A stretch of 64,000 nucleotides of DNA from Malacoraja senta (Eukaryota). Shown one piece after another: positions 14,058 to 58,260 of this stretch. The notes below the pieces were generated by a model. The model had not been told where the DNA came from and did no database searches. It worked only from the letters and a program-made list of their open reading frames with translations. Made by a program: the position numbers and the translations under genes. The stretch's first letter is position 1, and every line of letters begins with the position of its first letter. The stretch lies in NCBI GenBank assembly GCA_038087875.1, contig CM075990.1:16866001-16930000 (forward strand), written 5' to 3'.

Positions 14058-15230
14058 TTACTACGGGTGTCTGGAGTTGTGGGGAGAAGACAGGAGAATG
14101 GGGTTGAGAGGGAAAGATAGATGAACAGTGATTGAATGGCGGAGTAGACTTAATGGGCCAAATTACCCAATTCTGCTCCTATAACTTATGAACATGAATA
14201 ATATTTTGGGAGCTTAATCATAGATAGAGCTGACCGTAAATCGTGAATTCATGAACCCAGGAATAGCCTGTTCAGTTCAGTCTAGTTTATTGTCCCGTGT
14301 ATCGAGGTACAGTGAAAAACTTTTGTTGCGTGCTAACCAGTCAGCAGAAAGACAATACATGATTACAATCGAGCCATTTACAGTGTACAGATACATGATA
14401 AGGGAATAGCGTTTAGTGCAAGGTAAAGCCAGCAAAGTCCGATCAAGGATAGTCCGAGCGTCACCAATGAGGTAGATAGTAGTATTCTAGATATACTGGA
14501 TAGCATCCTGTACACTGGATGTTACCGAACTAGGAACTGTAGATGTTAACAGGGTCAATGTGAAAACAGGGCATCTGTCAGGGAACCAGGTGCAATACAG
14601 ATCTTAAATTCTGCACCCGCCTCTCTCCAATATGCTGTTGAATAATTCCCAAAACATTGAGATTTCTACCAGCTACAACAGGTTAAATGCAAGATGCCTT
14701 TTATATTATAAAGGACACAAAGTGCTGGAGTAACTCAGCGCGTCAGACAGCATCTCTAGTGAACATGGACAGGTAACGTGACCCAAAACATCACCTGATT
14801 ATTTTCTCCAGATGTGCTGAGTTACTTCTATGCTTTGTGTGTTTATTTTGTAAACCAGCATCTGCAGTTCCTTTTTTAAAATCTTTGATATTACATGACA
14901 GACACCTGAGCAGTTAACACATTGGGGATAAATAGATACCAAAGATTTTCAATGGGTTTGTGGATGAATAATCATGTCAAGGGACCCTCACTAAAATACT
15001 TAAAGGAAAGATTTCTCAACAAACCTTCAAAGTGTTCTGACGTTTGTCATCACAAGGTTAAAATGTTAACAGACTTGTCTAAATAGCCATGTCTAAATGA
15101 TTCATGGAGGGAGATGAGTCTTTACATTTTAAAATTGTGTGTTCTTTCCTCTTAAAAAAAAATAATTACAGAGTCGTGGAGCTGTACAGCATTGAAACAG
15201 GCCCTTCAGCCCACCTTATCCATGCTGATC

Positions 15231-15369
15231 TCTTCTTCTTGCGTATTGCGTGCACAGCCTAAAGTTGTAGGTCAACTTGTTCTGTTTGATCTTATTTGCT
15301 TGTGCACGCTGGGTTGATTGCATTCGTCGAAACAGGGCAGACCACATGAAGGTTGCAATCTTCCACCCC
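15231..15369 (-). mobile_element. 139-bp ribozyme-headed short retroposon with (AAG)n tail
   Basis: TSD CATGCTGATC at 15221-15230 and 15370-15379; inserted into a CR1 3' end; 3' hairpins and an AAGAAGAAGA tail. Confidence 0.8.
15316..15369 (-). ncRNA. Minimal HDV-like (CPEB3-like) self-cleaving ribozyme fold
   Basis: Minus strand reads GGGGUGG AA GAUUGCA ACC UUCAUGU GGU CUGCCCU G UUUCGA CGAA UGCAAUC, which parses as P1, P2, P3, L3, P3', P1', mini-P4, J4/2 (CGAA) and P2'. Confidence 0.8.
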
Positions 15370-38508: not shown

Positions 38509-38984
38509 GCCCCCTGTGGTCCTTGGTCGGCATTGGGCTGAAGGGCCTGTGCCTTTTCCGTGCCCTTCAGGACCAGTCTCCAAACCAGACCACTGAGGTT
38601 GGAAGAATCATACTGTACAATATGTCAGTACAGTATCCTAGACGTTCATCACTTAAGGCTGATGGGCCAAGATCACACTGTATTTAAAACGAATTCACAG
38701 TTATTAAAACGTCAATTATTCTAATTTTTGTTTCGAATACACAGTTGTCTCTTGCTTTGAACATAAACTACGTACAAGCAACTTATCACAAAACTTCTGA
38801 CTATTCCTGAAAAAACACATGTGATTATGTTGAATATACTGTGCATTAACAGAAGCCACTAGGTGTCAGTGTTATATAAGGGTTTCAGTTTGATCTGTTC
38901 CCTGTGCCTTAGCGCTCGCATTGTGCTCTGCGGTCTATTGGATTTGCAATGAAGACTACATTCAGTCATAGTTCATCGGTTCAT

Positions 38985-39148
38985 TCTTCTTATGGAGTCC
39001 ACACACAAGATTACAAGTTGTTCAGCCAGAGCTGATCACACTTCTCGGCATCTGCATACAATGGTGTCTGTCTTGTCGCTTCTTGTGCTTGGTGGTGGGA
39101 GGAATGGTGGAAATAGGGCCGCGACGTGAACGCTCTTTCCTTGACCCC
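38985..39148 (-). mobile_element. About 164-bp short retroposon headed by a degenerate HDV-like ribozyme
   Basis: Minus strand starts GGGGUC AA GGAAAGA GCG UUCACGU CGC GGCCCU and ends in an AAGAAGA tail. GTTCAT direct repeat at 38979-38984 and 39150-39155. Confidence 0.65.
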
Positions 39149-41457
39149 TGTTCATAGGTGATAGAGCAGAATTAGGCCATTCGGCCCATCAAGTCTACTC
39201 CGCCATTCAATCATGGCTGATCTATCTTTCCCTCTCAATCCCATTCTCCTGTCTTCTCCCGATAACCCCAGACACCTGTACTAATCAAGAATCTATCTAT
39301 CTCTGCCTTAAATATATCAATTGACTTGGCCTCCACAGCCTTCTGTGGCAATGAATTCCACAGATTCACCACCCACTGATTAAAGAAATTCCTCCTCATC
39401 TCCATCTCCTTCTTAAAGGTAAGTCCTTTTATTCTGAGGCTGTGGCCTCTGGATCTAGACTCTCCCACTGGTGCAAACATCCACTCTATCCACTATAGTC
39501 TGTTGGTTTACACAAAGGTGCTGGTCAATGTATCATTAAAAGATTGGCATAACTGGAGATAGAAACTGAGAATAGGGTGGGACACAAATAGCAAACCTAC
39601 ACATTCTGTGAGGTGTTTAGCTTTTCAATAGGATTTTTCTTTCCACTGTCACCTCAATCGATCCAAGTGCCTGAACCTCATATCTTTCAACTTGTCCAAG
39701 TCACCCCGTTCTGATTTTGAAACATATCAGCTACCATTAAAATGTGGACACCAGGAATTGCAGATGCTGGAATCTTGCATCTGCAATTCCTTTTGCTGCC
39801 TCACTGCGAATGCAGCACCGGAGACCCGGGTTTGTTCCCGACTACGGGTGCAGTCGTGCAGTTTGTACGTTCTCCCCGTGACCTGCGTGGGTTTTCTCCG
39901 ATATCTTCGGTTTCCTCCCACACCCCAAAGACGTACAGGTTCGTAGGATAATCGGTTTGGTAAATGTAAACATTATCCCTAGTGGGTGTAGGATAGTGTT
40001 AGTGTGTGTTGGTCGGCACGGACCCGGTGGGCCGAAGGGCCTGTTTCCCCGCTGTACCTCTAAACTATACTAAACTAAACTAAAGTACTTGTAAAAAACA
40101 ATCTACTGGAGGACCCCGAGCATCATATGTGGAGGGAAGAGGTAGGTTGGGACTCATCATCTGACCAGTCCAGATGAAGGTTTCCAACACGAAAGGCCAA
40201 CGGCCCATTTCCCTATACTGGTTCATCCTCAGACAGATTCTTGCTCTAGATCCCAGCATCTACATTCTCTTGCGTTCCAATTCACAGTTACATTTCCCAT
40301 TCACTTTGCCAATTTTCTGTCTGCTGCCCCGTTCATTCCGTGGGCTTCGACCTCAAAGAAACTTTTCACGATTATTTTGGCCAGAGACAAAAAACAAAAC
40401 ACTAAAAGCCATTTGACTGATATATTTGACAGGGTTTAGAGGAAGGTGGGACTAGTATAGATAGGGCATCATGGTCAGCAGGGGCAAGTTGGGCCGAAGA
40501 GCCTGTATCTGTTCTGTATGAGTTCCTTGTTTGGGCACACAAGGAACTGCAAGTGCAGTGCTCCAGGAACTCAGCGGGGATGGCAGCATCCGTGGAGCGA
40601 ATGGATAGATGACGTTTCAGGTCAGGACCCTTCTTCAGAACCGATTCCATTTTGTGAGGGGTTTATGAACAAGTCGACGTGCAGTGAAGCATAGAAAGCC
40701 AGAACAGGTCATAAATTCATGTTCTAGGAGCAGAATTAGGCCATTCAGCCCATCAAATCTACTCTGCCATTCAATCATAGCTAATCTATCTCTCCCTCCT
40801 AACCCCATTCTCCTGCCTTCTCACCATAACCCCTGACACCCGTACTAATCAAGAATTTGTCAATCTCCGCTTTAAAAATATCCATTAACGTGGTCCCCAC
40901 AGCCGTCAGTGGCAATGAATCCCACAGATTCACCCCCTCTGACTAAAGAAATTCCTCATCAGTATTTCCATGTGAGATTTGGGTGTAACGGTAATGTCTG
41001 AGAGAACATAGAGGTCTAATATATAAACACGAATGATTGAAAGTCAATGCAATTTACTTTTAAACAGATTCCATCAACCGGTTAATGTACAATCTTTGGA
41101 TCATTGATGAAAGTGCAGTCTAAGCATCTCTTCCTACTTTATGAGACGTGTCCATTAACAGAAGCTTTACGGACTTGGGTTTAACATTTCCATTAGGAAA
41201 GAGTAAGAAAAATGAGCTTGGGACCGTAATTGAGAGAAATTAAAGCAGCATGACGTCTGTCGACAATAATACATCAATAACTTGCCAGCTTTACTTACAA
41301 TCATAAAAATTCAATTTAAGGCTGATTCATCTTTGCTCCAATCAATCTTCAAATGATTCAATCTGCAAAATACATTCTACATGCAGAATCTGTCCCAATG
41401 ATTTGGGTTTCTGTTCGAGGCAGTCGTGAGTTGATCTGGAAATTTATCTTACGTTTA

Positions 41458-42896
41458 CAGTGGCTTGCAAAAGTATTCGTACCCCTGGAACTTTTCCACA
41501 TTTTGTCACGTTACAACCACAAACGTAAATGTATTTTATTGGGATTTTATGTGATAGACCAACACAAAGTGGCGCATAATTGTGAAGTGGAAGGAAAATG
41601 ATACATGGGTTTCAAATTTGTTTACAAATAAAGAACTGAAAAGTGTGGCGTGCAAAAGTATTCAGCCCCCTTTACTCTGATACCCCTAAATAAAATCCAG
41701 TGCAACCAATTGCCTTCAGAAATCACCTAATTAGTAATTAGAGTCCACTTGTGTGTAATCTAATCTCAGTATAAATCCATCATCCGAAAATGGAAAGAGT
41801 ATGGCACAACTGCAAACCTACCAAGACATGGCCGTCTACCTAAACTGACAGGCCGGGCAAGGAGAGCATTGATCAGAGAAGCAGCCAAGAGGCCCATGGT
41901 AACTCTGGAGGAGCTGCAGAGATCCACAGTTCAGGTGGGAGAATCTGTCCACAGGACAACTATTAGTCGTGCACTCCACAAATCGGGCCTTTATGGAAGA
42001 GTGGCAAGAAGAAAGCCATTGTTGAAAAAAAGCCATAAGAAGTCCCGTTTGCAGTTTGCCACAAGCCATGTGGGGGACACAGCAAACATGTGGAGGAAGG
42101 TGCTCTGGTCAGATGAGACCCAAATTGAAGTTTTTGGCCTAAATGCAAAACGCTATGTGTGGCGGAAAACTAACACTGCATATCACCCTGAACACACCAT
42201 CCCCACTGTGAAACATGGTGGTGGCAGCATCATGCTGTGGGGATGCTTTTCTTCAGCAGGGACAGGGAAGCTGGTCAGAGTTGATGGGAAGATGGATGGA
42301 GCCAAATACAGGGCAATCCTGGAAGAAAACCTGTTAGAGTCTGCAAAAGACTTGAGACTGGGGCGGAGGTTCACCTTCCAGCAGGACAACGACCCTAAAC
42401 ATACAGCCAGAGCTACAATGGAATGGTTTAGATCAAAGCATATTCATGTGTTAGAATGGCCCAGTCAAAGTCCAGACCTAAATCCAATTGAGAATCTCTG
42501 GCAAGACTTGAAAATTGCTGTTCACAGACGCTCTCCATCCAATCTGACTGAGCTTGAGCTATTTTGCAAAGAAGAATGGGCAAAAAAGTCAGTCTCTAGA
42601 TGTGCAAAGCTGGTAGAGACATACCCCAAAAGACTTGCAGCTGTAATTGCAGCGAAAGGTGGTTCTACAAAGTATTGACTCAGGGGGGCTGAATACTTTT
42701 GCACGCCACACTTTTCAGTTTTTTATTTGTAAAAAAATTTGAAAACCATGTATCATTTTCCTTCCACTTCACAATTATGCACCACTTTGTGTTGGTCTAT
42801 CACATAAAATCCCAATAAAATACATTTACGTTTGTGGTTGTAACGTGACAAAATGTGGAAAGGTTCAAGGGGTATGAAAACTTTTGCAAGCCACTG
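41458..42896 (+). mobile_element. Tc1-family DNA transposon (IR/DR type) with internal 5' deletion
   Basis: TA on both flanks; inverted repeats of about 210 bp starting CAGTGGCTTGCAAAAG; transposase ORF inside. Confidence 0.95.
41774..42678 (+). pseudogene. Tc1 transposase (DD34E), N-terminus missing
   Basis: WSDET, QQDNDPKH and SPDLNPIEN with 34 residues between the second D and the E. The frame is open from about 41774 (KSIIRKWKEYG) but lacks an ATG and the start of the paired domain. Confidence 0.85.
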
Positions 42897-56672: not shown

Positions 56673-57579
56673 AGGTACACAAAAATGCTGGAGAAACTCA
56701 GCGGGTGCAGCAGCATCTATGGAGCGAAGGAAATAGGTAACGTTTCGGGCCGAAACCCTTCTTCAGACTGATAGGGGGTGGGGAGAGGAAAGGAAAAAAG
56801 GAAAAGGAGGAGGAGGAGCCCGAGGGCTGGGGGAGGGGAGGAGACAACCAGAGGGCTGATGAAGGGGAGGGGACAGCCAGGGCTAGCAGAATTGGGAGAA
56901 TTCAATGTTCAAGCCCCAAGGATGTAGACTGCCCGAGCGGAATATGAGGTGCATTTCCTCCAATTTACGGTGTTGCTCGCTGTGGCCATGGAGGAGACCC
57001 AGGACAGAGAGGTCAGATACGGAATGGGAGGGGGAGTTGAAGTGCTGAGCCACCGGGAGTTCAGGTTGGTTATTGCGGACCGACCGGAGGTGTTCGGCGA
57101 AACGATCGCCAAGCCTCTGCTTGGTCTCACCGATGTAGATCAGCTGGCATCTAGAGCAGCGGATGCAATAGATGAGGTTGGAGGAGATGCAGGTGAACCT
57201 CTGTCGCACCTGGAACGACTGCTTGGGTCCTGGAATGGAGTGGAGGGGGGAAGTGAAGGGACAAGTGTTGCATCTCTTGCGGTTGCAAGGGAAAGTACCA
57301 GGGGAGGGGGTGGTATGGGAGGGAAGGGAAGAATTGACAAGGGAGTTACGGAGGGAGCGGTCTTTGCGGAAGGCAGACATGGGGGGAGATGGGAAGATGT
57401 GGCGAGTGGTGGGGTCACGTTGGAGGTGGCGAAACTGACGGAGGATCACTTGTTGTATGTGACGGCTGGTGGGGTGAAAGGTGAGGACTAGGGGGACTCT
57501 GCCTTTGTTGTGAGTGGGGGGATGGGGAGAGAGAGCAGTGTTGCGGGGTATGGCAGAGACCCTGGTGCGAGCCTCATCT
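56673..57579 (-). mobile_element. Penelope-like retroelement 3' part (GIY-YIG endonuclease plus terminal repeat), cut by the assembly gap
   Basis: ORF 56883-57449 has CNRKRCNTC and NLIYCIRCSRCQLIYIGET...RFAEH...HFN; the downstream repeat contains a hammerhead core. Confidence 0.9.
56739..56766 (-). ncRNA. Minimal type-I hammerhead ribozyme core in the Penelope terminal repeat
   Basis: CUGAAGA A GGGU-UUCG-GCCC GAAA CGUU: conserved boxes, stem II with a UUCG loop, and palindromic AACGUU in place of stem III. Confidence 0.7.
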
Positions 57580-57779
57580 NNNNNNNNNNNNNNNNNNNNN
57601 NNNNNNNNNNNNNNNNNNNNNNNNNNNNNNNNNNNNNNNNNNNNNNNNNNNNNNNNNNNNNNNNNNNNNNNNNNNNNNNNNNNNNNNNNNNNNNNNNNNN
57701 NNNNNNNNNNNNNNNNNNNNNNNNNNNNNNNNNNNNNNNNNNNNNNNNNNNNNNNNNNNNNNNNNNNNNNNNNNNNNNN
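57580..57779. other. Assembly gap (200 N)
   Basis: Run of exactly 200 N between a Penelope fragment and a CR1 fragment. Confidence 1.
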
Positions 57780-58260
57780 AGAATCTATCTATCTCTGCCT
57801 TAAATATATCCATTGACCTGACCTCCATAACCTTCTGTGGCAAAGAATTCCACAGATTCACCACGCTCTGACTGGAGGAATTCATCCTCATCTCCTTCCT
57901 AAAGGAATGTCATAAGATCATGTGATAGGAGTAGAATTAGGCCATTCGGCCCATTCAATCATGGCTGATCTATCTCTCCTCCTAACCCCATTCTCCTGCC
58001 TTCTCCCCATGACCTCTGACACCCCATTAATGTCCTTTAATTCTGAGGCTATGACCCCTGGTCCTAGACTCCCCCACTAGTGGAAACATCCTCTCCACAT
58101 CCACTCTATCCACGCACTTGAAGTGCTCCCGAGAATGTGTCAGCTCGGCCAGGTTATTGTATGACATGGAGAGATGTCCTCCACCAAGGTGGTTGCTCAA
58201 GGTCCAACGTGGTCCAACGTGATGTTTGAAGCTGACCACTTGCTTGCGTTTGCCTTGCAG

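Follow-up and report, generated by a model that had tools for sequence, protein, structure and literature searches.

The minus strand of a 64,000-nucleotide stretch of Malacoraja senta DNA (assembly GCA_038087875.1, contig CM075990.1, positions 16,866,001 to 16,930,000; hereafter the window) carries, from position 39148 onwards, a short element that a preliminary description had read as a retroposon with a ribozyme like that of hepatitis delta virus (HDV) at its head. All the parts listed there are present (Table 1). Helix P1 has 6 bp, with the G1.U34 wobble already described and a second one, U5.G30, added here; P3 and its loop L3 read GCG-UUCACGU-CGC, identical to the ribozyme of the mammalian CPEB3 gene (Rfam family RF00622), and a UUCCA loop follows. 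P2 has two mismatches, the P1.1 pair is lost through a G35 to A change, and the joining strand J4/2 reads CCAU, with the catalytic C retained. The AAGAAGA end represents an (AAG)n tail, and the flanking GTTCAT repeats, also seen, are now read as a probable target-site duplication within the tail of an older long interspersed element (LINE). We conclude that the feature is probably a damaged copy of a short non-autonomous retroposon, here called family A, in which an HDV-type head is joined to the 3' end of a LINE with a single open reading frame (ORF).

A relaxed HDV descriptor matched this element and the one known from the preliminary description as the 15.3-kb element (family B below) and nothing else in the window, with 0 matches in 40 random, dinucleotide-matched 64-kb sequences. 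The strict descriptor recovered the 15.3-kb element alone, as J4/2, P1.1, and P2 are not intact in the family A copy, and Rfam at its gathering threshold gave 0 matches over the whole window. Because of G35A, A45U, and the two P2 mismatches, the window copy is likely a dead ribozyme, in agreement with the earlier view of a probably inactive copy.

Table 1. Features of the window, in window coordinates.
Feature	Position	Strand	Remarks
Family A copy, 164-nt non-autonomous bipartite retroposon	38985..39148	minus	8 differences from the family majority
Ribozyme-type head, 52 nt, P4-less, HDV/CPEB3-type	39097..39148	minus	four lesions in the window copy: G35A, A45U, U48C, U50C
Head layout: P1 6 bp, J1/2 2 nt, P2 7 bp, P3 3 bp, L3 7 nt, P1.1 1 bp, 5-nt loop replacing P4, J4/2	39097..39148	minus	
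J4/2	39104..39107	minus	C42 (39107), catalytic cytosine position, kept; final A changed to U
Predicted 12-bp duplex of 5' untranslated region (UTR) and 3' end, 5' arm	39081..39092	minus	one mismatch in the window copy, C60A
Predicted 5'/3' duplex, 3' arm	38999..39010	minus	
LINE-derived 3' part: last ORF codons (..DAEKCVQLWLNN..), stop codon, 3' UTR, tail	38985..39057	minus	93% identity over 74 columns between the family A majority and the family G majority 3' end
(AAG)n tail, reads AAGAAGA	38985..38991	minus	
Probable target-site duplication, upstream copy	39150..39159	minus	10 bp, 1 mismatch against the downstream copy
Probable target-site duplication, downstream copy	38971..38980	minus	
3' end of an older, abundant LINE	39149..39408	minus	family A element inserted in its ATGAAC-type tail; C-terminus presumably CR1-like; no Pfam match
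Family B copy (15.3-kb element)	15230..15369	minus	54-nt P4-less head, 7-bp P1, own 10-bp 5'/3' duplex; passes the strict descriptor
Tc1/mariner transposase ORF remnant	41764..42678	plus	HTH_Tnp_Tc3_2 and DDE_3
301-codon open frame	56883..57788	minus	weak GIY-YIG match; probably a Penelope-like fragment

The retroposon family of the window copy numbers at least 741 members and is marked by a sharply defined 5' end, target-site duplications, and a tail of (AAG)n. The copy number is that of an exact 22-nt head pattern in the 1.94-Gb genome (reversed control, 0 matches); as the exact head word occurs in 7/28 copies picked by their 3' end, a rough estimate of the total is ~3,000. A search of the same genome with the window element returned 40 full-length matches, itself included, at 91-100% identity (40 scored of 1,603 candidates). 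After removal of 6 duplicates from 96 loci, 90 distinct copies, most of them chosen through the head, were compared: 77 start at G1 and 87 within 5 nt of it, and 27/30 loci chosen only by their 3' end have kept the head. Target duplications were found in 56/78 full-length copies, 42 of them 11-13 bp long and 48 beginning with an A that is possibly shared with the tail; together with the simple-repeat tail, they are what a bipartite non-autonomous LINE is expected to show. Mean divergence from the majority is 5.5% (25 copies), and reads or contigs with the element occur under seven organism labels. Five near-identical copies with the same flanks (L216-L220) lie on small contigs and suggest a larger repeated unit or segmental duplication that carries them, and a U1 snRNA gene or pseudogene (L013:5-163, plus strand, 111.7 bits) lies 1.3 kb from one copy.

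The family majority repairs the lesions of the window copy, a point that the preliminary description had proposed to check in a consensus of genomic copies: the majority has a perfect 7-bp P2 (pairs intact in 77-87 of 87 copies), G35 (85/87), and a J4/2 of CCAA with C42 (84/87) and A45 (85/87), while G1 is kept in 78/87. Neither outcome named there as refuting, a consensus short of P2 pairing or the J4/2 cytosine, or an absence of further copies with this 5' boundary, was observed. The features expected of HDV-like ribozymes, namely a paired or wobbling G1, the P1.1 G, and J4/2 with the catalytic C first and A last, are thus found in a 52-nt fold with a 5-nt loop in the place of P4 and a 6-bp P1; a 7-bp register of P1 was considered and does not pair. 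Family B (4,287 candidates) is a distinct ribozyme-headed family, as proposed earlier for the 15.3-kb element, with the same architecture and L3 type on a different P1 (7 bp), P2, and P3. The strict descriptor is passed by 22/30 family B and 35/87 family A copies; the ~40% of sampled family A copies with an intact fold could, by this model, cut host RNAs. The fold itself is supported by covariation. Across 12 real heads of 8 families, related sequences aligned to a structure set by eye, both partners change in 11/17 pairs and pairing holds in 92.9% of cells, a value reached by 0/500 shuffles and set against 42-51% in slid controls, in accordance with the nested double pseudoknot of P1, P2, and P3 that characterizes HDV-like ribozymes.

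These data suggest that the majority head of family A is likely a self-cleaving, P4-less HDV-type RNA that would be cut before G1. A P1 of 6 or 7 bp is within the normal range for HDV-like ribozymes (PMC4908430), and the autonomous family H, described below, likewise has 6 bp; the first base of J4/2 is known as the catalytic C, and in vitro activity is known for minimal HDV-like ribozymes without P4 (PMC10879173). Several properties of the head speak against its activity: it combines the absence of P4 with a single P1.1 pair and two wobbles in a 6-bp P1, a 5-bp alternative competes with P2 (-5.4 vs -7.4 kcal/mol), and outside CpG sites the head decays as fast as the body (5.5% vs 4.6% divergence, 25 copies), which indicates no selection on it.

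RNA evidence was drawn from raw reads under the same species label. In two bulk oligo-dT runs, the reads of family A are mostly passive, uncut RNA; 85-89% of them run past the element into dissimilar flanking sequence, coverage of the two strands is equal, and no start pile-up was listed for either run, which counts against cleavage. Two single-cell runs revealed loose read ends directly before G1 (68 and 79 reads in X21, with two references, and 81 in X22; median 31-32 nt), whose consensus matches, in the full 30-nt register, what we take to be the template-switch oligo. These reads fit RNA 5' ends at G1. Their weight is reduced by an agreement with the oligo of only 0.46-0.52, corresponding to an estimated third of the reads, by an antisense position within the element where the same oligo is also joined (21 reads, X22), by their origin in one study whose organism may be a relative rather than this species, and by the likeness of a cut end to a transcription start.

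This last point suits an alternative in which the head no longer cuts and serves as an internal RNA polymerase II promoter or as a protective 5' fold, so that the sharp 5' end would mark the start of transcription, with which the template-switch-joined ends are equally compatible. Capped templates often leave an extra G, and one follows the duplication in just 3/56 family A copies, a weak argument against such a start. The stripped-down fold with its alternative P2 could reflect a promoter or protective role, and the L1Tc ribozyme sequence, with its Pr77 hallmark, does double as a promoter (PMC8256844); still, minimal P4-less ribozymes cleave in vitro (PMC10879173), and families A and B, though distinct and unlike in P1, P2, and P3, have both retained the catalytic C and all core pairs. 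We therefore regard loss of cleavage as unlikely and retain a self-cleaving head as the working interpretation.

Downstream of the head, the 3' part of family A translates like the end of a LINE ORF, as in the C-termini of homologous proteins. A protein search disclosed its autonomous source, family G, as 13 5'-truncated copies among 30 fetched loci; their last 73 nt match family A at 83-91%, which is the derivation that defines short internally deleted elements (SIDEs). Family A likely spread by borrowing the protein of this partner LINE, of which the C-terminal part alone was recovered. The first 91 positions of family A would, by analogy, derive from a LINE 5' end, as homologous heads start the sister LINEs C, E, and H. 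These sisters are the sole tie of positions 1-91 to a LINE, and five attempts to find the family G 5' end, by head patterns, an N-terminal protein search, and a P4-plus-P2 pattern, did not find it. A C5-variant head pattern gave 38 matches, and all 30 fetched were short family A copies without a family G 5' end; the N-terminal search brought up families C, E, F, H, I, J, and K but not G; of the 7 matches to the P4-plus-P2 pattern, 2 lie in family A and the other 5 are unrelated. No match came from a pattern presumed for the C-terminus of the partner, because the partner reads YNEDAE.

The size, copy number, duplications, and LINE-derived 3' end of family A would also be expected of a conventional short interspersed element (SINE) transcribed by RNA polymerase III from a small-RNA-derived head, and the preliminary description had spoken of two ribozyme-headed SINE families. 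The second family is indeed distinct from that of the 15.3-kb element, but it is not a classical SINE: the window contains no tRNA, and neither a B box, on whichever strand, nor an A box in sense orientation occurs in family A, which thus lacks the tRNA, 7SL, or 5S head with A and B boxes of such elements. The sole plausible Rfam match of the head is RF00622, and autonomous LINEs begin with the same head type. The SINE interpretation is largely refuted and hardly credible. Because these promoter elements are lacking and the 3' part comes from a LINE ORF end, family A is, with good probability, a bipartite, internally deleted LINE derivative, a form described for RTE, Ingi, Vingi, and R2 elements (PMC5786205). 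Single internally deleted copies were also seen for families D, H, and F (L134:1300-1570, minus strand; L292:1680-1900; L298), and the copy in L134 has a full P4-containing CPEB3-type head and a duplication.

The two ends of family A are complementary. Positions 57-68 pair with 139-150, and each pair is kept in 61-82 of 87 copies. When, in eight families, the 40 nt that follow the head were folded with the final 40 nt, with hand-chosen windows and one copy per end, the matched assignment of 5' UTRs to 3' ends was the best of 40,320 permutations, the matched duplex was the row minimum in 6/8 families, and comparison with base shuffles gave at most 7/500 in 7/8 families. Families C and D, which lack the row minimum, and family D, not significant against shuffles (48/500), weaken the generality of the duplex. 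In its 3' arm, most family A copies have lost an extra A of the partner, and some keep it (71 vs 2 of 90 copies; L191-L220, L161-L174); the loss would perfect the family A duplex if the 5' arm was unchanged.

Half of the non-A loci fetched in the RF00622 search described below (12/24) are 5'-inverted LINE insertions (L128, L139, L132, L136, L142, L145, L125, L129, L133, L138, L144, L146). In the six with a clear duplication, the inverted piece of ~91-117 nt comprises the head plus the UTR, with a recurrent breakpoint near the UTR end, and such inversions would fit a second priming event beside the duplex.

A genome search with RF00622 listed 60 matches, 39 of them at or above the cut-off of 35 bits and the best at 64.2 bits (59 scored of ~102,000 candidates), while 0/14 control genomes had a match over the cut-off. 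Thirty fetched loci were all retroposon copies or fragments: 12 of family C, 5 of D, 3 of E, 4 of F, and 6 of A. The heads of families C-F reach 38-64 bits, and P4 and a 7-bp P1 are present in all four. Nine family C copies, 96-98% identical over 3.1 kb, contain one ORF of ~1,010 codons with an APE endonuclease domain and a reverse transcriptase (RT) domain, a CPEB3-type head, and a family A-type tail; an RNase H domain had no match in the protein. Two family C copies have nearly full open frames of 1,014 and 1,008 codons (L159, G000:C8:937600-937900; L259, G000:C4:35489700-35489900), and at their start the initial 26 nt of the ribozyme occur as 4-6 tandem repeats, as though the RT had repeatedly jumped back at P1.

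The partner and sister LINEs likely belong to the Vingi clade, judging from sequence features. Families C and J share a single ORF, APE and RT, and no RNase H match, and the C-terminal motifs are presumably Vingi-like; RTE elements are likewise single-ORF and without RNase H. The layout of family C matches a published summary of Vingi architecture (PMC13708176). A search for homologues found 172 proteins, the named ones from lancelet, urchin, starfish, teleosts, Anolis, and insects, with ~49-55% identity for those of Anolis, lancelet, and urchin. A tree built from 31 C-terminal regions places G, C, D, E, F, and H in one group (87/87, not starred, midpoint root) together with marine invertebrate proteins, while I, J, K, and Anolis fall outside; the heads of I, J, and K differ in P3 and L3. 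Counting against the clade assignment, none of the 172 homologues is labelled Vingi, and the tree is without an RTE or Ingi outgroup. A hint of horizontal transfer between fishes comes from family J (L257/L258), which lies very close to a protein of an eel (P0103, branch sum 0.13), and from family C (L259), which has 86% identity to a cluster that includes a protein from Aldrovandia (P0005).

The relation to the CPEB3 ribozyme can now be assessed family by family. Alignment of family A to RF00622, suggested in the preliminary description, does yield matches at the E-value level, but for the four sequences aligned all fall under the cut-off: the window copy, which matches part of the model, scores 26.9 bits, and three copies near the majority score 28.6-30.4. 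The 6 family A copies among the fetched RF00622 matches score 37-43.7 bits. Family A lacks the P4 helix and 7-bp P1 of RF00622, with which it shares an identical 19-nt run over P3/L3/P1. For family D, the majority of five copies (column support 2-5 of 5, lowest in the P1 5' strand) equals the Rfam CPEB3 consensus at 58-59/64 positions outside L4, counted by eye, and includes its whole 7-bp P4 stem and one compensatory pair in P2. A search with the exact P4 pattern of family D matched 2 sites, of which one was known before and the other is unrelated. Family H carries the CPEB3 P2 sequence.

As P2 and P4 vary freely among the sister LINE families, the likeness of family D to CPEB3 points to common descent. 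Convergence forced by the HDV fold, with another origin for the mammalian ribozyme, appears improbable to us. It would explain why family A matches mainly in the core and scores under the cut-off when near its majority, and why family B has no RF00622 match at E 0.01. Only six nucleotides are invariant across HDV-like ribozymes (PMC8256844). P2 and P4 differ between sister families and so are not fixed by the fold, which would hardly dictate the identity of family D over the P4 stem and the compensated P2, or 39/60 listed matches over the cut-off in this genome against none in the controls. We therefore favor, as reasonably probable on these alignments, an origin of the mammalian CPEB3 ribozyme from a LINE 5' end, likely that of an autonomous sister LINE sharing the head type. 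The direction from LINE to intron is the simpler one because the head sits on deeply split LINE lineages. The earlier speculation that such elements were a source of CPEB3-like ribozymes in vertebrates thus holds for sister LINE families that keep P4, but not for family A, which has no P4, a 6-bp P1, and a young age (5.5% mean divergence).

This proposal touches a published gap. PMC8233481 reports the CPEB3 ribozyme as not found outside mammals, and Bendixsen 2021 could not reconstruct deeper ancestors because an outgroup from outside the mammals was missing. The general idea that mobile elements can be co-opted has already been published (PMC7761336), and human DNA contains an ancient Vingi trace, X12_LINE (PMC5753468). 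A literature search that left Repbase and patents aside found no paper naming a LINE donor, and a supposed resemblance of the urchin ribozyme drz-Spur-3 to CPEB3 is contradicted by the primers given in PMC5984629. For the CPEB3 ribozyme, the LINE heads described here supply outgroups and a specific, testable donor.

Taken together, the observations suggest a cycle in which host read-through transcription would run over an intact family A copy and the head would cut the RNA just before G1. The 5' UTR might then pair with the 3' end, so that the RNA closes as a short handle next to the (AAG)n tail, where the LINE endonuclease-reverse transcriptase would prime at a nick on the tail, copy to G1, and leave an 11-13 bp duplication. 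We lean slightly towards the joint proposal that one Vingi-like LINE subclade with relatives in this genome gave rise to the mammalian CPEB3 ribozyme as a domesticated form of its 5' end, that these elements use a ribozyme-made 5' end and a family-specific duplex, and that the 52-54 nt P4-less ribozymes of their short derivatives cut host transcripts at G1 in living cells. Because work is under way to engineer Vingi elements into RNA gene writers (PMC13708176), a ribozyme head and 5'/3' duplex would be direct design rules for their donor RNAs.

Compared with known systems, the sister LINEs resemble the Vingi clade in being compact, with a single ORF, APE and RT, no RNase H, and internally deleted derivatives (PMC13708176, PMC5753468). 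Family A shares with the CPEB3 ribozyme the G1.U wobble, an identical P3/L3, and a single P1.1 pair; the latter is single-copy, intronic, and conserved, with a 7-bp P1 and P4, whereas family A is multicopy and neutrally decaying, with a 6-bp P1 and no P4 (PMC8233481). As in the minimal HDV-like ribozymes drz-Mtgn-1 and theta, a short loop replaces P4 in families A and B and J4/2 begins with C. Those ribozymes, as PMC10879173 describes them, are nearly all phage-encoded and often lie beside tRNAs, whereas here P4 is lost in two retroposon families of a vertebrate. The heads of A and B would be P4-less ribozymes encoded by a vertebrate, a type for which reports have until now come almost exclusively from phages. 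The closest counterparts in design are NARTc (of L1Tc), RIME (of Ingi), SIDER, the R2 SIDEs, and the Vingi-1_EE derivatives, which like family A keep only the two LINE ends and are mobilised in trans; NARTc, SIDER, and the R2 SIDEs also start with an HDV-like ribozyme, in some cases active in vitro (PMC5786205, PMC4035085). Family A differs from these counterparts in its vertebrate host, its 52-nt head without P4, its CPEB3-type core, and its 5'/3' duplex.
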